A DNA stretch of 63,753 nucleotides, filler included, from Stramenopiles sp. TOSAG23-6 (Eukaryota): NCBI GenBank assembly GCA_900128565.1. It is 23 parts of 23 records of this genome, joined end to end, with 100 filler letters (N's around TTAATTAATTAA, not from the genome) between each part and the next. Parts side by side here need not be neighbours in the genome. Positions count along the whole stretch, not along the records: positions 22,321 to 25,001 come from LT637873.1; 22 more parts are not named here. The stretch is one strand, 5' to 3'. Of this stretch, positions 11,247-63,753 are shown one piece after another. A program made the translations under genes and the position numbers. Under the pieces are notes generated by a model, which was not told the origin of the DNA, made no database searches, and saw nothing but the letters and a program-made list of their open reading frames with translations. Numbering within the stretch: the first letter of the stretch is position 1; each line of letters starts with the position of its first letter.

Positions 11247-12979
11247 GCAGTGCTAACAGACAGTGATCCTTCACATGATTTCTTTCGTATACAATTAATT
11301 TGTACTTTACTATCGGCCTGCGCAAAAGCAAAAAATTCAAAAATTGGTGTTTATTTACGTCCAAAGCAAAAAATCAATTCTCAATCTGCAGTTAAAATTT
11401 TAGAATTTTTTCATTATTTCATGCGATATATTCGTTACAAGTGGGGAATTACGTTAGAAACAAAATATATGGTTCATGTATGTTTTATTTTATTTTTTTC
11501 GGTAAAAAAAAATCGAATTTTTTTTTTATAGTAAATTTTGTACCTAACAAAAAACTTTTTTTTTTTCGGTAAAAAAAAAATCGAATTTTTTTTTATAGTA
11601 AATTTTGTACCTAACAAATTTTAGTTTTTTTTTTTTGAAATATTTTTACAAAATACATGACGTAGTTTCATTATTCTTTGGTACTGATTTTGTTATTCCA
11701 AATACTGTAGAAGAAGCACTAAAAGCAGTGAAAGCTTCAGAGGCAAGTCGAATATTACGGAAACAAGCTGAACAAAATTTATATTCGAGAGAAGCAGATC
11801 GATTTCGTGCTTCAAAAAATATAATGAACGATGATAAAAAGAATTATGATAATAATGATACTATTGATGATGATAATGATAATGATAATAATGATAATAA
11901 TAATAATGATAATGATAATAATGATGATGATAATAATGATAATAATGATGATAATGATGATGATAATGATGATAATAATGATGATGATGATGATAATAAT
12001 AATAATGATGATGATAATAATGATGATGATAATGAAGATGATACTATTGATAATGATAATGATAATGATGATGATGATACTATTGATAATAATAATGATA
12101 ATAATAATAATGATGATGATAATGAAGATGATATCAATGATAATGAGGATGATAAAGTATTAGGTGGATTAGGGTTTGAAAAAACTGAAGAAAATTTATT
12201 ATTTGAAAGTATGTTTAATGAAATGCTTCTAACAGATTCAACAACAAAAGCCTCTACTTTAGTTAATGCAAAGACAAATATGAGTAGAATGTATATCCCT
12301 CATCAAATTTTACATGGAAAATCTACAAATGATAAAAAAGATCCAGTAACAATCAAATCAAGACGAAATTCAACAATATCAATTATATCAGATTATTCTA
12401 CAAAATCAAATAAATCTGAATCATGTGATGATAATAATAATGATAATAATGATAATAATGATGATAATGATAATACTAAAAAAAACCTAACTGAAGAAGA
12501 TGATTTCAATAGTCTTTTAAATATGACTGGAGCTACGAAATTAGTTGAAGTAGATGACGCTTTAGACATGTACGTTTTCATCATGAATTTATTAATTTAT
12601 TTATTTTTCATACGAAATTTCGTACCTAACGATTTTTTTTTTTTTATAAAATTCGTGTTTTTTTTTTTCACAATACATGACTGGTGCTATAAAATTTCGA
12701 TTTTTACGGAGAGGACAACGGGGAAAAATTGAAACTTCTGATTTGTATGTACCAAATACGACACGATTGGGTGTTAATTTACATGCTCATGCCGAACAAG
12801 ACAGAATTGATCATGAACAGTTGAAAGAAAAAATTCTAGAATATAATTTTGATGATGAGAGTGAGTATCCTAGAGAGCAAGAAAAAGATAAGCGAAAGCC
12901 TCGATTTCAACAAAGAACGCGATATACTGGAAATTTCAATAAAGTAAGAAATACCAATCATAATTGGCGCAATCGTTGA
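11247..12979 (+). CDS. UPF2: Nonsense-mediated decay factor UPF2, C-terminal part
   Basis: DFFRIQLICTLL (MIF4G-3), Asp/Asn-rich tract, C-terminal UPF1-binding-like segment; GT-AT introns 11478-11658 and 12570-12678. Confidence 0.85.
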
Positions 12980-19593: not shown

Positions 19594-20787
19594 ACCTTGG
19601 CATTGTTTGGAGATGTGAAGCGTTTTCGTGAGGGAGTCATTCATGTAATTTCTTCTCTTTCATTTGATTTGGATATGAATGTTTCTGTATTTGAAACTAC
19701 AATTCGAATTCTAGGTGGACTACTGTCAGCTCACATGTATGACGTCATTAAAAAACTTTTTTTTTTTTTTTTTTTTTCCGATGAAAATATCTACCAATAC
19801 CAAAATAAAGTAAATGAATGTGTTGCATATGAAAATCTAGAGTGTCCAGAATGTATATATAACGATGGACTTCTTTTATTAGCGATAGATCTTGCAGATA
19901 GATTGTTACCTGCATTTGAAACTAGTACCGGGATTCCTTATGGAACTGTCAATTTGCGTCATGGCATACCAAAGGCAGAAACTAAAATTGCGTGTACCGC
20001 AGGAGCAGGCTCCTTATGTGCAAGAGAAGCAGTTAAAGCGATTGTCAGTCGTAAATCTAAAATTGGTTTAGTTGGTAAACATATAAATGTAGAGACAGGA
20101 GTATGGACAGAAAGAGTCAGTTCGATTGGACCAAATATTGACTCTTTCTATGAGTATCTTTTAAAAGCGTATATTTACACACAAGATGATGAATTATGGG
20201 AATGGTTTATTGATGCTTACAAGGCCGTGAATCGTCATTTGAAAATGGGAGATTGGTATGTGGATACTTTATTAGACTCTGGAAAACCTACAATAATTGC
20301 TTTTAATAATCTACAAGCATTTTGGCCAGGACTTCAAGTCTTAGTAGGTGACATTAGTGCCGCAACTAAAACACTTAACGCTTTTCATACTATTCAACGT
20401 CAGTATGGTTATGTCCCTGAAGATTACGATTTCCGTCAGAAAAAATTACTTTCACGTAGTGAATCTAAAAGGTATCCACTTCGCCCTGAATTAGCAGAAT
20501 CGACATATCTCGTGTATGCCGCAACAGGTGATCGTAGTTGGCTCTCTGCTGGGAAATCCATGCTACTTAGTTTAGAAGATCTTGTCACAAGTTGTGGAGT
20601 TGCATCCGTTGAGAATGTTGCATCAGGTGACTTAGAAGATGCACAACCTTCATTTTTTCTTAGTGAGACACTTAAATATTTATATCTTCTTTTTAATGCC
20701 CAAGAATCATCTTTTCAACCTTTTCCATATGAAGCTATATTCACAACAGAAGCTCATATTCTTCCTGTGCAGTTTTTTAATATATCT
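19594..20787 (+). CDS. EDEM-type GH47 alpha-1,2-mannosidase (partial; copy with 54-nt deletion)
   Basis: VSVFETTIRILGGLLSAH, DSFYEYLLK, YPLRPELAES, SFFLSETLKYLYLLF. Confidence 0.9.
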
Positions 20788-22165
20788 AGATATATTAAAA
20801 AACTGCACAGGAAGAATATGAGCTTCTGTTGTGAATATAGCTTCATATGGAAAAGGTTGAAAAGATGATTCTTGGGCATTAAAAAGAAGATATAAATATT
20901 TAAGTGTCTCACTAAGAAAAAATGAAGGTTGTGCATCTTCTAAGTCACCTGATGCAACATTCTCAACGGATGCAACTCCACAACTTGTGACAAGATCTTC
21001 TAAACTAAGTAGCATGGATTTCCCAGCAGAGAGCCAACTACGATCACCTGTTGCGGCATACACGAGATATGTCGATTCTGCTAATTCAGGGCGAAGTGGA
21101 TACCTTTTAGATTCACTACGTGAAAGTAATTTTTTCTGACGGAAATCGTAATCTTCAGGGACATAACCATACTGACGTTGAATAGTATGAAAAGCGTTAA
21201 GTGTTTTAGTTGCGGCACTAATGTCACCTACTAAGACTTGAAGTCCTGGCCAAAATGCTTGTAGATTATTAAAAGCAATTATTGTAGGTTTTCCAGAGTC
21301 TAATAAAGTATCCACATACCAATCTCCCATTTTCAAATGACGATTCACGGCCTTGTAAGCATCAATAAACCATTCCCATAATTCATCATCTTGTGTGTAA
21401 ATATACGCTTTTAAAAGATACTCATAGAAAGAGTCAATATTTGGTCCAATCGAACTGACTCTTTCTGTCCATACTCCTGTCTCTACATTTATATGTTTAC
21501 CAACTAAACCAATTTTAGATTTACGACTGACAATCGCTTTAACTGCTTCTCTTGCACGATTATAATATGCGGAATTACCTGTTAATTTGGTCAATGCAGC
21601 AAATTCTAATAATAAGGAGCCTGCTCCTGCGGTACACGCAATTTTAGTTTCTGCCTTTGGTATGCCATGACGCAAATTGACAGTTCCATAAGGAATCCCG
21701 GTACTAGTTTCAAATGCAGGTAACAATCTATCTGCAAGATCTATCGCTAATAAAAGAAGTCCATCGTTATATATACATTCTGGACACTCTAGATTTTCAT
21801 ATGCAACACATTCATTTACTTTATTTTGGTATTGGTAGATATTTTCATCGGTNNNNNNNNNNNNNNNNNNNNNNNNNNNNNNNNNNNNNNNNNNNNNNNN
21901 NNNNNNNNNNNNNNNNNNNNNNNNNNNNNNNNNNNNNNNNNNNNNNNNNNNNNNNNNNNNNNNNNNNNNNNNNNNNNNNNNAAAAAAAAAAAAAAAAAAA
22001 AAGTTTTTTAATGACGTCATACATGTGAGCTGACAGTAGTCCACCTAGAATTCGAATTGTAGTTTCAAATACAGAAACATTCATATCCAAATCAAATGAA
22101 AGAGAAGAAATTACATGAATGACTCCCTCACGAAAACGCTTCACATCTCCAAACAATGCCAAGGT
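20788..22165 (-). CDS. Mirror copy of the same EDEM gene (fold-back artefact)
   Basis: Contig 19539-22220 is a palindrome centred at 20787/20788. Confidence 0.85.
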
Positions 22166-22320: not shown

Positions 22321-23198
22321 TGGTACACTAAAGATATGTACGTTTTTATCATTAATTTTCAAATTGTTTTTTTCAAACGAAATTTTGTACCTAACGAAAA
22401 TTGTAAAGTTTTTTTTGAAATATATTTTTTCAAAATACATGTACAATTTCTCCTGCGCCACATAAACCTTGGTATCGTAGACGAAATTCTATAATGTGGT
22501 CAGCAATGCCAACTTCATATGAGACGAATTCGAATATTGGAGGATTCATTGAAGAGAGCAAAGTAGAGGTCAATGTATGTTTTCAAAGTTTATTTTTTTT
22601 TCAATTTTGAATTTATGTTTTTTTTTTTTCGTACGAAATGTTGTACCTAACCATGTTTTCAAAGGAATTTCGTTTTTATTTTTTTTTTCAAAATTTTTTT
22701 TTCGTAACAACTTGTACAAAAAAAAATATTTTTCAAAATACATTCATCTTGGTTTGGAAAAAGTAGTAATATATTTGATGATACAGTATCAAATATAGAT
22801 ATGAAATTTCTTGCTGGTAATTCTAAAGAAAAATGTGTAGTGACGCAATTACATCAAACACGTAACCCTAACCCTAATGTATATCGGACAGGATCCCAAA
22901 TACATTCAAATAGACAAATTCCGAGGCATTCGAGAGGACAAAGAAGATGTACGTTTTCAAATTGAATTTCGAATTTATTTAGTTTTTTCGTACGAAATTC
23001 CGTACCTAACAAATTTTACAAAAAAAAAAATATTTTGTGTACAATACATACGTATCAAATTCAAGAATGGGGGTGTATCCAACAGGAACTGCTCCTTGGG
23101 CCAGAAATACATCTGCACGATTTCCAGCTTCTAGAGAATCTCAACAACGAAATTTTGCTCCACCAGGATCAAAAGCTGAAATTGACTTTGCTGGTTAG
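22321..23198 (+). CDS. Unknown protein, 3' part, three GT-AT introns
   Basis: Removing 22338-22440, 22575-22743 and 22949-23049 gives one open frame (CTISPAPHKPWYRRR...AEIDFAG*). Confidence 0.7.
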
Positions 23199-23332
23199 GG
23201 TTAGGGTTCATGTGATCAAACGTAGATTATTTTGTAGTAAACATAAAATTGAAATTCATTATTACTTTTTATTTTTATTTTTGAAAATGTTTTTTCGTAT
23301 ATAAAAATTATAGATGATTACTAGGGTTAGGG

Positions 23333-24564
23333 TTAGGATTCTTTACTAATCGTAACAGTCGTTGCAATACCTTTACCAATATAATTTACTAAAGAATTAT
23401 TCTTGTCAAATGAATCGTAGTCAGCAGCCCATGGAAATACACCACGAAATCCATGAGTTTTTACAAATTTTCCAATTTCAAAATTTTGTTTTTTACTTGG
23501 AAAGGGATCTCCATCACAAATACAAACTTCATATGCTACATTTGGACACTTTTCAGAATAATACCCTCCCCATGTATTGTGAAAAAATACGAAATCATTA
23601 AAAAAAATCGTTAGGTACGAAATTTCGTACGAAAAAAAAATTTAGATAAAAAATTGAAAAAAAAAACATACATGTATGCTCACTAAGAATTTTAAATGGA
23701 TTATGATTTTTAAGATCCACCGTAAAATATCCAATGCCGAGATTTATTTGTTGCCTTGATATACCCCAAATGGATTCGATAACAAATACATCCTTTTTCC
23801 ATTGCCAAATTGAACAATCACGTGGTGTATGATAAGACATTGTATCGAGGAATAAATTGGGGTTTTCACGAAAAATATCTTTATCTACCCAAGGAATGAA
23901 ACCTAAAGGATAGGAATCAAAACCAAACGCACCCACAGCTGCTCCAACAGTAAATCCTACACCCATGGACTTTTGGAAAAATATTTCAAAAAAAAAATCG
24001 TTAGGTACAAAATTTCGTACGAAAAAAAAAACGAATTTGAAAAAAAATGAATTTGAAAAAAAATAAAACATTCATGGACTTTTGTATAGCATCTAAGAAT
24101 ACAGAGTACGCCTTTCGCTCTGCATAAGTATAAACACCTGCACTTTCGAGCCTTCCATGACCTTCAAAGTCAAAAGATAGGCCTTGAATATGACTCCCAC
24201 AAGATTTGACTGTTGAACCAATACTTGAAATATACGATTGACAGAACATTTCGTTTGCTGAAGACCGATTAGGGTCGATACATCTCCAAGGGTCAATATT
24301 AGGGATTAACGTGACAGTTGTGTTGTGATTCTGTGCAAGCTGATGAAGCCGGAGAAAATAAGGTGATTCTGGACAAGAAGTTTCACCAGTTGTAGAGTTC
24401 ACTTTGACTGTTCCGCTTCGGATCGTAGTATAAACATCCCAGTTAAGAAGTTCCAACGAAGTAGAATTTTCGTTAACCAGCCAACCCGTTACGTCAACAC
24501 TTCTAATTTGATGTAAGAGTGTAAATAATAGTATACTGTGTAAACATTGCTGCATTGAGCTCAT
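23333..24564 (-). CDS. Secreted GH18-like (chitinase/chitobiase-like) hydrolase
   Basis: Signal peptide; GLSFDFEG; GFRGVFPWAADYD; introns 23965-24073 (GA-AT) and 23572-23671 (GT-AT). Confidence 0.7.
23965..24073 (-). other. GA-AT intron with 12-nt direct repeat
   Basis: CAAAAGTCCAT|GAATGTTTT...CAAAAGTCCAT|G. Confidence 0.8.
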
Positions 24565-25154
24565 TGCTGTAACAACCTATTCTGTTTAGACAGAGGAACA
24601 CTTTTAAATGATAATGAGTGGTTGGTGTTGTCATGTAATGGTGAAAGTATCACGAATAAATAAACATAATTTCCTTTAAAAATGACGGTTAAATATTTCG
24701 TGTTTTTTTGGAAAAACGAACTTGAGTTGAGTTCTCTCTTGAGCTCGAGACCACTGGATACAATTCGACTGGAGAATTCTTGAGGAAGGTAGTAGTAATT
24801 AGCATCAGGTTTTGAGTATTTTATATGTAGATTTCGATGAGCAAGCCTTGAGATTTTTATTTGACGATGCATCATCAACGACGTTTGGTACCACCCCCCC
24901 CACCTCCTCCTCCGCTACCACCGCCAATAGAAAGTAGGAAGCAGTTTGAGCCTTCGCGTGATTATTATCCGCCCCACCTACCACCGCCAATAGAAAGTAG
25001 GNNNNNNNNNNNNNNNNNNNNNNNNNNNNNNNNNNNNNNNNNNNNTTAATTAATTAANNNNNNNNNNNNNNNNNNNNNNNNNNNNNNNNNNNNNNNNNNN
25101 NTTTTGTACCTAACAAATTTTAGTTTTTTTTTGAAATATTTTTCCAAAATACAT

Positions 25155-30501: not shown

Positions 30502-30690
30502 GTACATTTTATATGAATTTCTAATTTATTTTTTTTCATACGAAATTTCGTACCTAACGATNNNNNNNNNNNNNNNNNNNNNNNNNNNNNNNNNNNNNNN
30601 NNNNNTTAATTAATTAANNNNNNNNNNNNNNNNNNNNNNNNNNNNNNNNNNNNNNNNNNNNGAAAAAAAACAAAAAATATAAAATAATAT

Positions 30691-31884
30691 TTATTTGAAT
30701 CTATTGCTAGATTTCAAACTATAAAGTTTGTTAGTAAGTCTTTGTGTTAAATCTGCCTCATTTTTAAGAAGATCTTCAAAAAAACCACTACTTCTACATG
30801 CAGTCAGGAGTAATGGAATATAATTACTAATTTTTCTTGCACTAGGTGATACATGTCCATTTGTACTTTTAATATTGTTCTTTTCATAGAAATCTTCGAT
30901 AAATCTTGCTTGATTAGCAGTCCATCTTTCATATGGCCCTCTTTTTAGTGTTTTTCGTGTTTTCTTATCTGTACCAACTGCCCTCACTCGGTCGGGTGCC
31001 TTCCTTTTTAATGTCGAAGAAGCTGAAGCGTCAACCTTAAAACGTCCAGATAGAGGACCGCCGAAAGTAGAACTCCCACTTTCTTGACCATCACTAACAA
31101 ACTCCCTCTTTCCACCAGCAATTTCCGCTGGTTCTACATCTGCTTCTGCCGATGCTTTTGCTAGAGCTTGAATTATTACTGCTGGTTTTGGTTTTGGTTT
31201 TGCTTCTGCTTTTGCTTGAATTATTGCTGCTGCTTTTGCTTGAGCTTGAATTATTGCTGCTACTTTTGCTTTTGCTTCATGTGTTAAAGAAGACGCTTCA
31301 CCTGTAACACTATTATGTGCACCCTGCTTTCCCTTAAAAATACCTGTTTCTGAGAGAGACCCTGTTATTCTAGCAATCAAAACTTTAGCATGCAATTTCA
31401 ACATATCCAAATCTTTACCATTTGCAAAGCCTTCCACAAGGTCGTCAAGTTCGTCTTCTGAAGATTCTGAGGATGAACTATCAGAATCTATTGCACCATC
31501 ATCACCTGTAGCGTTTTTCAATTCTGACGGTAGAGAACGCGGGTTTTCATTAATAATTTCGTGATAAATATCTTCATTATTAGACTCTAAAGAAGTATCG
31601 GAAGTATCATCCTTCAAAATATCATGCCTCAAAATATCATTTTTTTCTGTAAAAATTGTATTCCTCTCCAATTCCCATGGAAACTTCTGAATTGTATCCC
31701 TCTCGAAATCCCATGGAAACTCCTGAACCGCATCGGGGAACTCCCGGAACTCTGACTTCCAAATCTTATCCGCACTGGGTAAATTAGTCGCGAGATTACA
31801 CGTTAATCCCAAATCGAGGCATGAAAGAATTGTAAATAAATAAATAAAATTCATCTGTATTAAGCCTTGTATGGTGTTCGCCAA
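30691..31884 (-). CDS. Hypothetical protein (likely ATG at 31854)
   Basis: 397-aa ORF; FPW repeats, Ala-rich repeats, weak HTH-like C-terminus. Confidence 0.55.
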   Translation of the reverse strand: MANTIQGLIQMNFIYLFTILSCLDLGLTCNLATNLPSADKIWKSEFREFPDAVQEFPWDFERDTIQKFPWELERNTIFTEKNDILRHDILKDDTSDTSLESNNEDIYHEIINENPRSLPSELKNATGDDGAIDSDSSSSESSEDELDDLVEGFANGKDLDMLKLHAKVLIARITGSLSETGIFKGKQGAHNSVTGEASSLTHEAKAKVAAIIQAQAKAAAIIQAKAEAKPKPKPAVIIQALAKASAEADVEPAEIAGGKREFVSDGQESGSSTFGGPLSGRFKVDASASSTLKRKAPDRVRAVGTDKKTRKTLKRGPYERWTANQARFIEDFYEKNNIKSTNGHVSPSARKISNYIPLLLTACRSSGFFEDLLKNEADLTQRLTNKLYSLKSSNRFK

Positions 31885-32105
31885 CTTTTACGTATTCGAT
31901 ACGCTTAATTAGCTTGGTACAGCTAATGGGTACCGGTAATTAAAAGCTCGCTGCGCTGGCTCGATCTCATCTCAGATTCTCGACTGCTCGATTTTTTGAT
32001 CAGATCGGTCATTTAAAACATCAAAAACATCACCGATTGCATTGTGCCGCTGCGCAGGCTTTCACATTTTATTTATGAATGATAAATAATTAATATTTTT
32101 TGCAA

Positions 32106-32756
32106 ATGTCAGATGGATACGACTACGATGCTCTTGTGAATGGAAACGCTATTGACCAGCAGCAATTGAATTCAAATGTATTAGAACTTAAAGTTGCACT
32201 TCTAAATGAGAAGCTTTGTCCTGAAATATTACAGTACAAAGATGAGCTCGTAGACGATATCAAGAAACAACTTGAGCTACAGCAAGACCTCATCATTCAA
32301 GGCGGCGGCCCGAATAATTTTTCAATTGCTATATATCAGATGGAGATTGATCGAATTCGTTTTATGCTTACCTCTTATTTGCGTGTGCGTTTGCTGAAGC
32401 TTGAAAAGTATGTGTTCTATATAATGGCAACCGCCGATTTCCACAACAGGTTATCACCAGGAGAGTTTGAATATGCAAAGCAGCACCTCAACAATATTGG
32501 ATCACATTTCAATGATTTAGTTTTAAACCATTTACCGGATAAGTTTAAGGGATTGGACGAGACTAAAACCCAGTTGGCAAAACCTCCTTTGAATGAATTC
32601 GTGTTTTGCCGAGTTAAGAAAGACATTGGTGATGTAGACGTTGGTGACTTAGACCTTGCAGGGGGGCATGTCGACCTTGAAAAAGATGATGCTTATCTAC
32701 TGCGATATATAGCAATTCAAACACAGTTATACGAAGGAAAAGTTGATCTTATTTAA
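32106..32756 (+). CDS. SLD5: GINS complex subunit 4
   Basis: NEKLCPEILQY, YQMEIDRIRFMLTSYLRVRLLKLEKY. Confidence 0.92.
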   Translation: MSDGYDYDALVNGNAIDQQQLNSNVLELKVALLNEKLCPEILQYKDELVDDIKKQLELQQDLIIQGGGPNNFSIAIYQMEIDRIRFMLTSYLRVRLLKLEKYVFYIMATADFHNRLSPGEFEYAKQHLNNIGSHFNDLVLNHLPDKFKGLDETKTQLAKPPLNEFVFCRVKKDIGDVDVGDLDLAGGHVDLEKDDAYLLRYIAIQTQLYEGKVDLI

Positions 32757-32784
32757 AAAATTTATTTCATGGAGTTACAATATT

Positions 32785-33183
32785 TTAAGAACTTTTTTTT
32801 TTTTTTTTACGGTTTGCGTTCTCAGTCGCCCACTTTTGTTGTTGTTTCCATATCGCTTCTTGATACATTCTCTGATATTCTACATCATCAAACCCAATCA
32901 ATGATTCTAAAGATGGACCCATAAAGTATAAGTATAACGAAGCTCCTGCCAACACGGTTACTATATGAATTTGGTACAAATAAACTCTGCAAAACATTGT
33001 TGTTACCAGTGCTAAAAAAACAAGAAATGTGCGTAATAGCATTGTTCCATTTACACCAATGTCATTAGACAAGCCATTTGATCCATATATACCTCTACTA
33101 TTTTTCATTTTCGATGAATCTCGATATACAGCTACGCACCAATCGCACCACTCATTTTTCATTTCAAAATAACTTGGACAGTT
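32785..33183 (-). CDS. Terminal exon of a membrane protein
   Basis: Open frame after branch motif; two hydrophobic segments, basic tail. Confidence 0.5.
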   Translation of the reverse strand, partial: NCPSYFEMKNEWCDWCVAVYRDSSKMKNSRGIYGSNGLSNDIGVNGTMLLRTFLVFLALVTTMFCRVYLYQIHIVTVLAGASLYLYFMGPSLESLIGFDDVEYQRMYQEAIWKQQQKWATENANRKKKKKSS

Positions 33184-33435
33184 ACGTATTGTGAAATATA
33201 GTTCACGTTTGAAATTCGTTAGGTACACAATGTTTTAGGAAAAACAATTTGAACAATAATACATCTGAATAAATTTGAACAATAAATTTGAACAATAAAT
33301 TTGAACAATAAATTTGAACAATAAATTTGAACAATNNNNNNNNNNNNNNNNNNNNNNNNNNNNNNNNNNNNNNNNNNNNTTAATTAATTAANNNNNNNNN
33401 NNNNNNNNNNNNNNNNNNNNNNNNNNNNNNNNNNN

Positions 33436-58331: not shown

Positions 58332-60992
58332 GAAAAAAAACAAAAAATATAAAATAATATTTATTTGAATCTATTGCTAGATTTCAAACTATAAAGTTTG
58401 TTAGTAAGTCTTTGTGTTAAATCTGCCTCATTTTTAAGAAGATCTTCAAAAAAACCACTACTTCTACATGCAGTCAGGAGTAATGGAATATAATTACTAA
58501 TTTTTCTTGCACTAGGTGATACATGTCCATTTGTACTTTTAATATTGTTCTTTTCATAGAAATCTTCGATAAATCTTGCTTGATTAGCAGTCCATCTTTC
58601 ATATGGCCCTCTTTTTAGTGTTTTTCGTGTTTTCTTATCTGTACCAACTGCCCTCACTCGGTCGGGTGCCTTCCTTTTTAATGTCGAAGAAGCTGAAGCG
58701 TCAACCTTAAAACGTCCAGATAGAGGACCGCCGAAAGTAGAACTCCCACTTTCTTGACCATCACTAACAAACTCCCTCTTTCCACCAGCAATTTCCGCTG
58801 GTTCTACATCTGCTTCTGCCGATGCTTTTGCTAGAGCTTGAATTATTACTGCTGGTTTTGGTTTTGGTTTTGCTTCTGCTTTTGCTTGAATTATTGCTGC
58901 TGCTTTTGCTTGAGCTTGAATTATTGCTGCTACTTTTGCTTTTGCTTCATGTGTTAAAGAAGACGCTTCACCTGTAACACTATTATGTGCACCCTGCTTT
59001 CCCTTAAAAATACCTGTTTCTGAGAGAGACCCTGTTATTCTAGCAATCAAAACTTTAGCATGCAATTTCAACATATCCAAATCTTTACCATTTGCAAAGC
59101 CTTCCACAAGGTCGTCAAGTTCGTCTTCTGAAGATTCTGAGGATGAACTATCAGAATCTATTGCACCATCATCACCTGTAGCGTTTTTCAATTCTGACGG
59201 TAGAGAACGCGGGTTTTCATTAATAATTTCGTGATAAATATCTTCATTATTAGACTCTAAAGAAGTATCGGAAGTATCATCCTTCAAAATATCATGCCTC
59301 AAAATATCATTTTTTTCTGTAAAAATTGTATTCCTCTCCAATTCCCATGGAAACTTCTGAATTGTATCCCTCTCGAAATCCCATGGAAACTCCTGAACCG
59401 CATCGGGGAACTCCCGGAACTCTGACTTCCAAATCTTATCCGCACTGGGTAAATTAGTCGCGAGATTACACGTTAATCCCAAATCGAGGCATGAAAGAAT
59501 TGTAAATAAATAAATAAAATTCATCTGTATTAAGCCTTGTATGGTGTTCGCCAACTTTTACGTATTCGATACGCTTAATTAGCTTGGTACAGCTAATGGG
59601 TACCGGTAATTAAAAGCTCGCTGCGCTGGCTCGATCTCATCTCAGATTCTCGACTGCTCGATTTTTTGATCAGATCGGTCATTTAAAACATCAAAAACAT
59701 CACCGATTGCATTGTGCCGCTGCGCAGGCTTTCACATTTTATTTATGAATGATAAATAATTAATATTTTTTGCAAATGTCAGATGGATACGACTACGATG
59801 CTCTTGTGAATGGAAACGCTATTGACCAGCAGCAATTGAATTCAAATGTATTAGAACTTAAAGTTGCACTTCTAAATGAGAAGCTTTGTCCTGAAATATT
59901 ACAGTACAAAGATGAGCTCGTAGACGATATCAAGAAACAACTTGAGCTACAGCAAGACCTCATCATTCAAGGCGGCGGCCCGAATAATTTTTCAATTGCT
60001 ATATATCAGATGGAGATTGATCGAATTCGTTTTATGCTTACCTCTTATTTGCGTGTGCGTTTGCTGAAGCTTGAAAAGTATGTGTTCTATATAATGGCAA
60101 CCGCCGATTTCCACAACAGGTTATCACCAGGAGAGTTTGAATATGCAAAGCAGCACCTCAACAATATTGGATCACATTTCAATGATTTAGTTTTAAACCA
60201 TTTACCGGATAAGTTTAAGGGATTGGACGAGACTAAAACCCAGTTGGCAAAACCTCCTTTGAATGAATTCGTGTTTTGCCGAGTTAAGAAAGACATTGGT
60301 GATGTAGACGTTGGTGACTTAGACCTTGCAGGGGGGCATGTCGACCTTGAAAAAGATGATGCTTATCTACTGCGATATATAGCAATTCAAACACAGTTAT
60401 ACGAAGGAAAAGTTGATCTTATTTAAAAAATTTATTTCATGGAGTTACAATATTTTAAGAACTTTTTTTTTTTTTTTTACGGTTTGCGTTCTCAGTCGCC
60501 CACTTTTGTTGTTGTTTCCATATCGCTTCTTGATACATTCTCTGATATTCTACATCATCAAACCCAATCAATGATTCTAAAGATGGACCCATAAAGTATA
60601 AGTATAACGAAGCTCCTGCCAACACGGTTACTATATGAATTTGGTACAAATAAACTCTGCAAAACATTGTTGTTACCAGTGCTAAAAAAACAAGAAATGT
60701 GCGTAATAGCATTGTTCCATTTACACCAATGTCATTAGACAAGCCATTTGATCCATATATACCTCTACTATTTTTCATTTTCGATGAATCTCGATATACA
60801 GCTACGCACCAATCGCACCACTCATTTTTCATTTCAAAATAACTTGGACAGTTACGTATTGTGAAATATAGTTCACGTTTGAAATTCGTTAGGTACACAA
60901 TGTTTTAGGAAAAACAATTTGAACAATAATACATCTGAATAAATTTGAACAATAAATTTGAACAATAAATTTGAACAATAAATTTGAACAAT
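58332..60992. repeat. Duplicate of contig 30662-33335 (includes SLD5 at 59776-60426)
   Basis: Same start and identical ORFs; one fewer 13-nt terminal repeat unit. Confidence 0.95.
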
Positions 60993-61092: not shown

Positions 61093-63753
61093 GAAAAAAA
61101 ACAAAAAATATAAAATAATATTTATTTGAATCTATTGCTAGATTTCAAACTATAAAGTTTGTTAGTAAGTCTTTGTGTTAAATCTGCCTCATTTTTAAGA
61201 AGATCTTCAAAAAAACCACTACTTCTACATGCAGTCAGGAGTAATGGAATATAATTACTAATTTTTCTTGCACTAGGTGATACATGTCCATTTGTACTTT
61301 TAATATTGTTCTTTTCATAGAAATCTTCGATAAATCTTGCTTGATTAGCAGTCCATCTTTCATATGGCCCTCTTTTTAGTGTTTTTCGTGTTTTCTTATC
61401 TGTACCAACTGCCCTCACTCGGTCGGGTGCCTTCCTTTTTAATGTCGAAGAAGCTGAAGCGTCAACCTTAAAACGTCCAGATAGAGGACCGCCGAAAGTA
61501 GAACTCCCACTTTCTTGACCATCACTAACAAACTCCCTCTTTCCACCAGCAATTTCCGCTGGTTCTACATCTGCTTCTGCCGATGCTTTTGCTAGAGCTT
61601 GAATTATTACTGCTGGTTTTGGTTTTGGTTTTGCTTCTGCTTTTGCTTGAATTATTGCTGCTGCTTTTGCTTGAGCTTGAATTATTGCTGCTACTTTTGC
61701 TTTTGCTTCATGTGTTAAAGAAGACGCTTCACCTGTAACACTATTATGTGCACCCTGCTTTCCCTTAAAAATACCTGTTTCTGAGAGAGACCCTGTTATT
61801 CTAGCAATCAAAACTTTAGCATGCAATTTCAACATATCCAAATCTTTACCATTTGCAAAGCCTTCCACAAGGTCGTCAAGTTCGTCTTCTGAAGATTCTG
61901 AGGATGAACTATCAGAATCTATTGCACCATCATCACCTGTAGCGTTTTTCAATTCTGACGGTAGAGAACGCGGGTTTTCATTAATAATTTCGTGATAAAT
62001 ATCTTCATTATTAGACTCTAAAGAAGTATCGGAAGTATCATCCTTCAAAATATCATGCCTCAAAATATCATTTTTTTCTGTAAAAATTGTATTCCTCTCC
62101 AATTCCCATGGAAACTTCTGAATTGTATCCCTCTCGAAATCCCATGGAAACTCCTGAACCGCATCGGGGAACTCCCGGAACTCTGACTTCCAAATCTTAT
62201 CCGCACTGGGTAAATTAGTCGCGAGATTACACGTTAATCCCAAATCGAGGCATGAAAGAATTGTAAATAAATAAATAAAATTCATCTGTATTAAGCCTTG
62301 TATGGTGTTCGCCAACTTTTACGTATTCGATACGCTTAATTAGCTTGGTACAGCTAATGGGTACCGGTAATTAAAAGCTCGCTGCGCTGGCTCGATCTCA
62401 TCTCAGATTCTCGACTGCTCGATTTTTTGATCAGATCGGTCATTTAAAACATCAAAAACATCACCGATTGCATTGTGCCGCTGCGCAGGCTTTCACATTT
62501 TATTTATGAATGATAAATAATTAATATTTTTTGCAAATGTCAGATGGATACGACTACGATGCTCTTGTGAATGGAAACGCTATTGACCAGCAGCAATTGA
62601 ATTCAAATGTATTAGAACTTAAAGTTGCACTTCTAAATGAGAAGCTTTGTCCTGAAATATTACAGTACAAAGATGAGCTCGTAGACGATATCAAGAAACA
62701 ACTTGAGCTACAGCAAGACCTCATCATTCAAGGCGGCGGCCCGAATAATTTTTCAATTGCTATATATCAGATGGAGATTGATCGAATTCGTTTTATGCTT
62801 ACCTCTTATTTGCGTGTGCGTTTGCTGAAGCTTGAAAAGTATGTGTTCTATATAATGGCAACCGCCGATTTCCACAACAGGTTATCACCAGGAGAGTTTG
62901 AATATGCAAAGCAGCACCTCAACAATATTGGATCACATTTCAATGATTTAGTTTTAAACCATTTACCGGATAAGTTTAAGGGATTGGACGAGACTAAAAC
63001 CCAGTTGGCAAAACCTCCTTTGAATGAATTCGTGTTTTGCCGAGTTAAGAAAGACATTGGTGATGTAGACGTTGGTGACTTAGACCTTGCAGGGGGGCAT
63101 GTCGACCTTGAAAAAGATGATGCTTATCTACTGCGATATATAGCAATTCAAACACAGTTATACGAAGGAAAAGTTGATCTTATTTAAAAAATTTATTTCA
63201 TGGAGTTACAATATTTTAAGAACTTTTTTTTTTTTTTTTACGGTTTGCGTTCTCAGTCGCCCACTTTTGTTGTTGTTTCCATATCGCTTCTTGATACATT
63301 CTCTGATATTCTACATCATCAAACCCAATCAATGATTCTAAAGATGGACCCATAAAGTATAAGTATAACGAAGCTCCTGCCAACACGGTTACTATATGAA
63401 TTTGGTACAAATAAACTCTGCAAAACATTGTTGTTACCAGTGCTAAAAAAACAAGAAATGTGCGTAATAGCATTGTTCCATTTACACCAATGTCATTAGA
63501 CAAGCCATTTGATCCATATATACCTCTACTATTTTTCATTTTCGATGAATCTCGATATACAGCTACGCACCAATCGCACCACTCATTTTTCATTTCAAAA
63601 TAACTTGGACAGTTACGTATTGTGAAATATAGTTCACGTTTGAAATTCGTTAGGTACACAATGTTTTAGGAAAAACAATTTGAACAATAATACATCTGAA
63701 TAAATTTGAACAATAAATTTGAACAATAAATTTGAACAATAAATTTGAACAAT
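61093..63753. repeat. Third copy of contig 30662-33335 (includes SLD5 at 62537-63187)
   Basis: Same length and ORFs as 58332-60992. Confidence 0.95.

Follow-up and report, generated by a model that had tools for sequence, protein, structure and literature searches.

A 109-nucleotide (nt) insert that carries a unit of a mass-copied intron family, and that is bounded by an exact 12-nt direct repeat of the host exon, interrupts a putative GH18-like gene of Stramenopiles sp. TOSAG23-6 (assembly GCA_900128565.1), and a closely similar seawater population carries the same gene without it. On balance, we favor the reading that this copy is a young member of the family, inserted at the QKSM/G codons (the slash marks an exon border here and below) via microhomology-guided break repair that duplicated the target. 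Our analysis covered the whole stretch of DNA that was available, referred to as the window, which has a length of 63,753 nt with a guanine + cytosine content of ~24-40% and consists of 23 contigs of ~2.7 kb, ordered by falling length and joined by linkers of the form N44-TTAATTAATTAA-N44; genes on either side of a linker are not genome neighbors. The contig that holds the insert (22321-25001) is free of N and is present in public seawater metagenomes, poly(A) metatranscriptomes, and two small single-organism runs, which places its source among uncultured marine eukaryotes. The runs compared below are a 2024 seawater run labeled 'DNA?' (X1), the probable source run (X2), and two poly(A) RNA runs (X4 and X7). 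The elements of the locus are listed here.

24073-24564, minus strand: exon 1 of the predicted GH18-like secreted protein, 164 codons from ATG to QKSM.
23672-23963, minus strand: exon 2 (GVGFTVGAAVGAFGFD...SEHT), placed by alignment to homologues and covered by RNA contigs (records 17 and 25).
23572-23671, minus strand: neighboring ordinary family intron, GTATGT...ATACAT, with a junction repeat of 7 nt; X1 contigs enter it from both sides.
23333-23571, minus strand: exon 3 and stop codon, placed by alignment to homologues.
24073-24084, minus strand: 5' copy of the 12-mer, which closes exon 1 and encodes Q-K-S-M.
23964-23975, minus strand: 3' copy of the 12-mer; in the register 23965-24073, the final 11 intron nt and the first base of exon 2.
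23976-24072, minus strand: 97-nt insert, a family unit of the GTATGTTTTA.../...CCAAAATACAT subfamily without its final 3' bases.
24068-24073, minus strand: GAATGT at the family donor position, one T-to-A change at +2 relative to GTATGT.
24035-24063, minus strand: tandem duplication of a 16-nt T-run/CAAATTC unit (spacing 16) in the 5' half of the intron.
24000-24020, minus strand: family core GTACGAAATTTTGTACCTAAC, in which a branch-site-like CTAAC comes after a near-palindrome; it is an exact match to the family module.
23976-23999, minus strand: T-tract and GAAATATTTTTC, the 3' part of the family unit as far as the duplicated 12-mer.

The 12-mer CAAAAGTCCATG occurs on the minus strand at 24084-24073 and at 23975-23964, with a start-to-start spacing of 109 nt, and is unique to these two sites in the window even when one mismatch is allowed. 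The repeat is exactly 12 nt long because the bases just outside the two copies differ (GCTATA and TTTTTC before, AATGTT and GGTGTA after). Its 3' copy takes the place of the family 3' end, so that CCAAAATACAT becomes CCAAAAGTCCAT; together with GAATGT in the position of GTAYGT, the insert thus carries neither the usual 5' end nor the usual ATACAT, and its departures from the consensus are exactly the letters of the exon end. The bases at the two borders of the insert agree with the family consensus, both ahead of the donor (CAT/G) and toward the 3' end (CCAAAA), but the terminal TACAT of the family is missing. Compared with the ten best of the other 27 introns described below, the 97-nt insert showed 88-93% identity over aligned columns, in alignments with 19 to 76 gap columns, many of them in T-runs. 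The full length of 109 nt is near the family median of 107 nt, and removal of any 109-nt register restores the reading frame. Folding of the two ends onto each other was not significant (minimum free energy, -15.6 kcal/mol; z = 0.27; 113/200 shuffles folded at least as well). The sequence-only reading had proposed a GA-AT intron between perfect 12-nt repeats with splice sites that copy the exon end; the repeat at both junctions and the off-consensus GAATGT and GTCCAT ends were confirmed, the latter against the 28 curated introns. Its 'GA-AT' label did not stand, as the interval 23965-24073 (GAATGT...GTCCAT) is merely one of 13 equivalent 109-nt registers, none of which yields GT-AG or AT-AC.

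Nearly all introns in the window follow a single plan, (c)AT / GTAYGT, T-rich DNA, an internal module, a T-tract, (GAAATATTTTT), and AYACAT / (g). The 21-nt module, GTACGAAATTT[TC]GTACCTAAC, combines a near-palindrome with a branch-like box and gave 62 fuzzy matches on both strands of the 64 kb, with 60 oriented matches. A curated set of 28 introns was assembled, each with both ends clear and within one contig. Before counting, we excluded copies truncated by contig ends or N, any second module within an intron, the hairpin contig, and the triplicate contigs, together with about a dozen copies with uncertain ends (modules at 8008, 9137, 4521, 3896, 6628, 5205, 4264, 6137, 4712, 966, 5099, and 63657/60896/33226). 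The 5' end was GTATGT in 11 and GTACGT in 10 of the 28; ATACAT closed 17, exon 1 ended in AT in 24, exon 2 started with G in 19, and the distance from CTAAC to the 3' end ranged from 32 to 110 nt. Besides the 109-nt insert, one intron has a GA donor (36414, GAACGT) and two have CCAT ends (ATCCAT, at 49624 and 48830). The two ends covary: 8/11 GTATGT copies end in ...AAAA[TA]ACAT, and 8/10 GTACGT copies end in ...CAATA[CT]AT. When the exonic AT is counted, the family ends form ATGTAT...ATACAT, a 6-nt inverted repeat that the 3' end of the insert does not have.

One RNA joint of the family was seen, in which record 24 of X7 joins 22946 to 23048. Because AT is common to both sides of this joint, the family register could be AT-AC, TG-CA, or GT-AT. 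The shared AT itself may reflect a 2-nt duplication or a splice-site preference, or it may belong to the intron. U12-type AT-AC introns have an ATATCC-type 5' site and carry their branch box a short way upstream of the 3' end. This type was rejected for the family, which in that register would start with ATGTAYGT and which holds its CTAAC 32-110 nt from the 3' end. Ciliate-style DNA elimination was likewise rejected, as ordinary members of the family, which RNA lacks, occur in X1 DNA. On the 2.7-kb stretch, 5,340 contigs of X1 and 6,201 contigs of X2 were found, nearly all of them piled on intron cores, and the family therefore has thousands of copies. A search of metagenome contigs with a family 17-mer returned 64 loci, of which 0/64 were family members, all being without T-tracts and family ends, and an Rfam scan of the 64-kb window gave 0 matches, with no small nuclear RNA among them. 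In the literature searched, no GT-AT or AT-AC family with this module was described, although the family may already be in print.

Several copies in the window vary in build. In the 59-nt copy at 48830-48888 (minus strand), the whole 5' half is gone and GTATGT directly abuts the module, and in the introns at 11478-11658 (plus strand) and 5860-6004 (minus strand), the module is duplicated in tandem. Copies within 4480-4620 and 3850-4000 (minus strand) have the apparent ends TATAG/ATATAG before GT, and the family may thus use AG as well as AT 3' ends; the borders of these copies are uncertain, and they were left uncounted.

The junction repeat at the insert exceeds what the family consensus would produce by itself. 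We measured the repeat length at each junction, K, which is independent of the register chosen, and compared it with a null in which every intron was paired with the exon flanks of every other (756 pairings); this tally covers the window only. The 28 introns gave K values of 12, 12, 8, 7, 6, 5 (six introns), 4 (three), 3 (seven), 2 (six), and 1, with a mean of 4.3. The flank-swap null averaged 3.35 and peaked at 8, and 0/756 pairings reached 10. When exon end and intron end were compared in a locked register, the insert scored 12/14 matches, a level that 0/756 null pairs reached. The register-locked means of the family were near the null (L, 5.93 vs 5.22; R, 4.96 vs 4.90), and long junction repeats therefore belong to a few copies, not to the whole family. 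No duplication of constant length was found in the family, as K ran from 1 to 12, with 26/28 at 8 or below and only the shared AT constant. The count of the 12-mer over the whole window was not significant by itself (2 vs 0.44 expected; 7/100 shuffles reached 2); the improbable feature is the placement of the two copies exactly at both junctions.

The homologues of the host gene identify the original copy of the repeat. A full HMMER scan with the host protein yielded 28 relatives. Of these, P0001 and P0003 read QKSMG where the window reads QKSM/G, with no gap and with the downstream sequence continuing; the 51% identical P0001, for example, has LQKSMGEP-YTVGACVGAFGFD against IQKSM/GVG-FTVGAAVGAFGFD in the window. 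This gapless conservation indicates that the exon copy is old coding sequence and that the 3' copy in the intron is derived, and it means that exactly 109 nt must be missing from the messenger RNA. The product is predicted to be GH18-like via homologue P0018, which scored 59.3 bits to the GH18 family in Pfam (PF00704; gathering cut-off, 29.6). P0001, P0012, and P0009 were below the PF00704 cut-off, and two of the six tested homologues had no match. The three exons of the host gene, tested singly, had no match in Pfam, exon 1 had 0 matches in the PDB, and a word-index protein search with exon 1 returned 371 candidates, none of which was significant.

An allele without the insert was present in X1. 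Record 4 of this run (643 nt; depth, 7.9) joins 23872-23963 directly to 24073-24623 with three differing letters, and it is the sole X1 contig over the flanking exon bins (depths of 6.12 and 7.9). Other X1 contigs enter the neighboring intron from both sides (record 2 up to 23579 and record 3 from 23642), and record 2 likewise extends, from 23007, into the convergent gene's intron. X1 covers the intergenic DNA (23149-23332 and 24594-24901) at an even depth of 5-8, whereas X4 and X7 have almost none there. With both introns and intergenic DNA covered, X1 behaves as genomic DNA; a population ~99% identical to the window therefore has the gene without the insert, its other introns being kept. RNA contigs respect the same borders, halting at 23963 (record 17 of X4) or beginning at 24073 (record 30 of X7).

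The window holds further loci in which a family intron and a junction duplication occur together.

54969-55056, minus strand: intron of the CAP gene, 88 nt, GT...AG ends, with a 67-nt family core.
10390-10518, plus strand: third case, an intron (10390-10482) with its family ends intact, followed by a duplication.
36414-36509, plus strand: fourth, imperfect case, with a GAACGT donor, an aberrant 3' end, and a 9/10 repeat, CGAA[G/C]ATGAA.

At the CAP intron, the exact 12-nt duplication CACAAAAAAGGT lies at 55055-55066 and 54967-54978, and a 9-nt copy of AGGATACAA (exon, 55067-55075; intron, 55046-55054) precedes the 67-nt core. Removal of the intron gives a 436-codon open frame, in which the stretch from NR to DQK has eight residues, as in CAP homologues. 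Because the exon copy is coding and fits the homologues without a gap, it is the original here too. These homologues spread over many phyla, and CAP exon 1 had 0 matches in the PDB. At the third locus, the final 25 nt of exon 1 (10365-10389) are repeated, with 23/25 matches, at 10494-10518, 11 nt past the intron. The frame is kept on removal of either 93 or 129 nt, and either 12 extra codons are retained or the real intron has 129 nt and ends in GCAT. The two mismatches in this 25-nt copy indicate an older event in the cell, not template switching in vitro. The 96 nt of the fourth case are free of stops in the frame of a 405-codon open reading frame with an ESCO-type zinc finger, and their retention would be frame-neutral. 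Three shorter repeats are pieces of the family end that are present in the exon: TGTACGTT at 8618, ATACATG at 23671, and ATGTAC at 22338.

These features suggest a route of insertion. A unit-length family copy, either DNA or complementary DNA (cDNA), would have entered a break in the exon. Its 5' end would have joined at the microhomology CATG, formed by the usual exon flank and first base, and its 3' end, shortened by a few bases, at the microhomology CAAAA inside the 3' end of the unit. The 12 target bases between the two joints would then have been copied to both sides, through a staggered break or a template switch back to the target, and the product would read exon ...CAAAAGTCCATG, the 97-nt family unit, CAAAAGTCCATG, exon. 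The two microhomologies, CATG and CAAAA, are found in the family consensus as well as in the target. In the CAP gene, the corresponding joints fall on CAA and CACAA, and a little of the flanking exon was copied in. Microhomology at the joints, trimmed ends, a templated copy, and duplications of variable length (12, 12, and 25 nt) together argue for end joining or template switching. From this combination we infer the break-repair route, and we take the event to be a gain rather than a loss. As both switch points lie at the ends of the unit, free unit-length molecules (excised DNA or cDNA of spliced introns) presumably exist. For other organisms, a model of this kind has been published in the portion of PMC3020277 drawn on here, in which microhomology lets a free fragment be captured at a break, and direct repeats may or may not flank it. 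Target-primed insertion of the long interspersed nuclear element type was rejected, as the duplicated target is not A-rich at its start beside an A-tail in either orientation.

The insert keeps the internal signals of the family, namely a donor-like GAATGT, the near-palindrome with CTAAC, the T-tract, and a terminal CAT, and it is therefore probably removed as an intron, as judged from sequence features. A broader reading, which we hold only tentatively and as a possibility, is that the family is still multiplying in a wild marine protist, with new copies put in place by microhomology-guided break repair or template switching, target duplications of ~12 nt, splicing in spite of terminal dinucleotides that come from the target, and insert and empty alleles that segregate in the sea. 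Under this broader reading, splice points would be determined not by GT-AG but by the internal module together with the duplicated junction.

Short, interstitial telomere-like repeats, (TTAGGG)2-3, are a further feature of the window, with 17 matches against 0.07 expected.

(TTAGGG)2-3 starts: 3719, 5263, 5405, 5471, 22866, 23195, 23321, 34351, 37333, 37734, 38537, 44208, and 44581.

The repeat at 44208-44225 is inside an intron with ACGT at either side, the one at 22866 is in coding DNA (NPNPN), and those at 23195-23212 and 23321-23340 lie exactly at the stop codons of two convergent genes. Such repeats may be scars of break repair, compatible with the mechanism proposed for the 109-nt intron.

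The assembly itself has irregular contigs. The contig at 19539-22220 is a perfect hairpin, with arms at 20018-20787 and 20788-21557 (770 nt) that abut with 0 nt between and are 100% complementary, while additional arms extend to both contig ends; it is a typical whole-genome-amplification chimera. A GH47 mannosidase-like gene is present in it twice. A protein-atlas search returned GH47 clusters only, from mixed taxa. Three contigs (30662-33335, 58332-60992, and 61093-63753) are nearly identical, with 2,621 40-mers in common to each pair, and represent either assembly redundancy or a true multi-copy locus.

Several observations weigh against a young, break-repaired family member. The 'DNA?' label of X1 is a guess. 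The RNA contigs that border the insert (record 17 of X4 and record 30 of X7) have the X1 letters (24144 C, 24220 G, and 24310 A), whereas the window, as the insert allele, has T, A, and C at these positions; the RNA contigs may therefore derive from the empty allele and do not prove splicing of the insert. Over the flanking exon bins (23761-23940 and 24121-24210), the depth of X2 is zero, and among metagenome contigs, 163 pattern matches to relatives of the host gene were obtained, none of which was confirmed. No outgroup sequence polarizes gain versus loss, and the termini of the insert are not the family consensus in any register. A chimera exists inside the same assembly, the hairpin contig, which adjoins the contig of the insert in the window. 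Finally, a boundary-free repeat test gave 3/40 at 12 nt or more against 2.1% of its null, a noisy test whose null is inflated by family similarity and duplicate contigs and which brought the 10390 case to light.

One alternative, which we regard as unlikely, is that the insertion is real and recent and yet unspliced, leaving a null allele of a dispensable gene. The lack of consensus termini in every register and of RNA evidence tied to the insert allele would fit such an allele, as would the shift of frame that 109 nt would cause if retained. However, each departure has a precedent among the 28 introns (one other GA donor and two other CCAT ends), all internal family signals are intact, and the CAP intron, with equally aberrant ends, lies in a conserved gene whose frame needs its removal.

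An artefact of amplification or assembly, in which the polymerase switched from the exon to an intron copy and back so that the genome itself is without the insert, is our chief concern among the alternatives, yet appears quite unlikely. The empty site in the sole independent DNA-like data set, the exon gaps of X2, the adjoining hairpin, and the three near-identical contigs would all be compatible with it, and both junctions lie at short microhomologies, like template switches. Nonetheless, it needs two switches within 97 nt, with a return no more than 12 nt from the point of departure, and the switch points are the two ends of an intron unit rather than random places. The insert was not copied from the nearby intron 23572-23671, as the flanks differ, and the chimera of the hairpin contig is of the inverted kind, whereas the insert is of the direct kind. 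Moreover, the analogous 25-nt duplication (10365-10518) has two mismatches, which are unexpected of copying in vitro.

We consider it distinctly unlikely that the insert is an ancestral intron which X1 lost precisely, either by repair across the 12-mer or through cDNA. A direct repeat of 12 nt lends itself ideally to precise microhomology-mediated deletion (a model set out in the part of PMC3020277 used here), the X1 contig retains exactly one repeat copy and nothing more, and, as noted, gain and loss are not polarized by an outgroup. Set against this, the repeat is still perfect (12/12) although its intronic copy is free of coding constraint, and the off-consensus donor and 3' end suggest a copy still untuned by selection. 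The neighboring intron, 100 codons downstream, is kept in X1, which argues against cDNA-mediated loss, and the loss scenario leaves the origin of the duplication unexplained.

A classical introner, that is, a cut-and-paste miniature transposon with the 12-mer as its transposase-made target-site duplication, is very unlikely. The very high copy number, the 6-nt inverted repeat ATGTAT...ATACAT obtained with the exonic AT, and the two exact 12-nt duplications among 28 introns would suit it, and in the available portion of PMC11282704, known introners have duplications that supply a splice site. However, junction repeats are at most 8 nt in 26/28 introns with the family mean near the flank-swap null, the element ends, which a transposase requires, are truncated or replaced in both 12-nt cases, and the third case is 25 nt long, so duplication length is not fixed. 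A transposase origin is therefore unlikely. The sequence-only reading had suggested that the intron was possibly gained recently and that a target duplication supplied its splice sites, as with introner transposons or staggered-break repair. The gain and the duplication fit our data: against flank-swapped controls in the window, 12 nt exceeds what the consensus predicts (null maximum, 8), and the presence/absence comparison found the gene without the 109 nt in a ~99%-identical, DNA-like seawater data set. The transposon-type origin does not fit, as there is no fixed-length duplication. That the exon end merely resembles a consensus intron 3' end by chance is extremely improbable, for although 9/12 letters (CAAAA, CATG) fit the family 3' end plus the usual first exon base and the window-wide 12-mer count alone is not significant, no flank swap out of 756 reaches 10, the three off-consensus letters and a one-base length change are exactly those of the exon, and an insert-free allele exists.

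The origin of spliceosomal introns is a long-standing question with two answers, transposon-like introners and the capture of DNA at breaks. If the insert allele is confirmed and spliced, the locus would offer an uncultured protist with a dated, polarizable intron gain, a way to test the tolerance of its spliceosome for arbitrary terminal dinucleotides, and a 109-nt marker, scorable by polymerase chain reaction product size, for tracking intron birth in ocean populations. Should the family indeed still be multiplying, intron birth would be directly observable, and if the insert is a chimera, it would be a warning for intron studies based on single-cell assemblies.

Break-repair intron gains with short direct repeats are described for Daphnia, Drosophila, and Aspergillus in the part of PMC3020277 consulted. 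The insert resembles those gains in that a short direct repeat overlaps the splice sites, presence differs between close relatives, and capture is stabilized by microhomology. It differs in that the evidence comes from one single-cell assembly and one environmental run, its termini are non-canonical, and the captured fragment is the genome's own mass-copied intron unit with internal splicing signals, not anonymous DNA. Introners are reported from Micromonas, Aureococcus, dinoflagellates, and others in the sections of PMC11282704 and PMC12130899 used here, and they share with this family a population of short, similar introns in the thousands, marine protist hosts, and a duplication from which part of a splice site is made; their short inverted termini may correspond to the 6-nt ends noted above, which depend on counting the exonic AT. 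In contrast, the introners described in those sections duplicate a constant number of bases (3 nt in M. pusilla) and use mainly canonical sites, whereas the present family has no constant duplication beyond AT, and its long ones (12, 12, and 25 nt) accompany damaged ends.

Introners of Amoebophrya, for which a transposase-independent spread has been considered, likewise have non-canonical borders, direct repeats at the junctions, and many copies, and their inverted repeats may have a counterpart in the same 6-nt ends, according to the excerpts of PMC7789003 and PMC11282704. In the same excerpts, their repeats are 3-5 nt and highly variable, their ends form hairpins, and U1 is absent; unlike them, the family described here has a strong GTAYGT and a fixed internal module, and the insert has no end-pairing fold. 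The AG-AC/AG-AT introns of Fritillaria borealis, derived from miniature inverted-repeat transposable elements, are similar in being a non-GT-AG population with some AT ends and junction duplications, and perhaps in having inverted termini, but their termini and sequence differ, the host is an animal, and splicing was shown experimentally there (PMC11282704, in the part available). The nonconventional introns of euglenids and marine diplonemids also combine non-canonical borders, junction repeats, and a suspected transposon origin, and those of marine diplonemids are known from marine single-cell genomes (available portions of PMC6221363, PMC12621601, and PMC10161547). As those portions present them, they have variable borders, no U1-like 5' end, and a stable end-pairing structure, whereas the family here has GTAYGT in 21/28 introns and a CTAAC box, and the insert forms no significant fold. 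Viewed alongside these systems, the locus seems to combine both answers to the question of intron origin, with a mass-copied intron unit joined by microhomology, a duplicated target, and an empty allele that still exists in nature.

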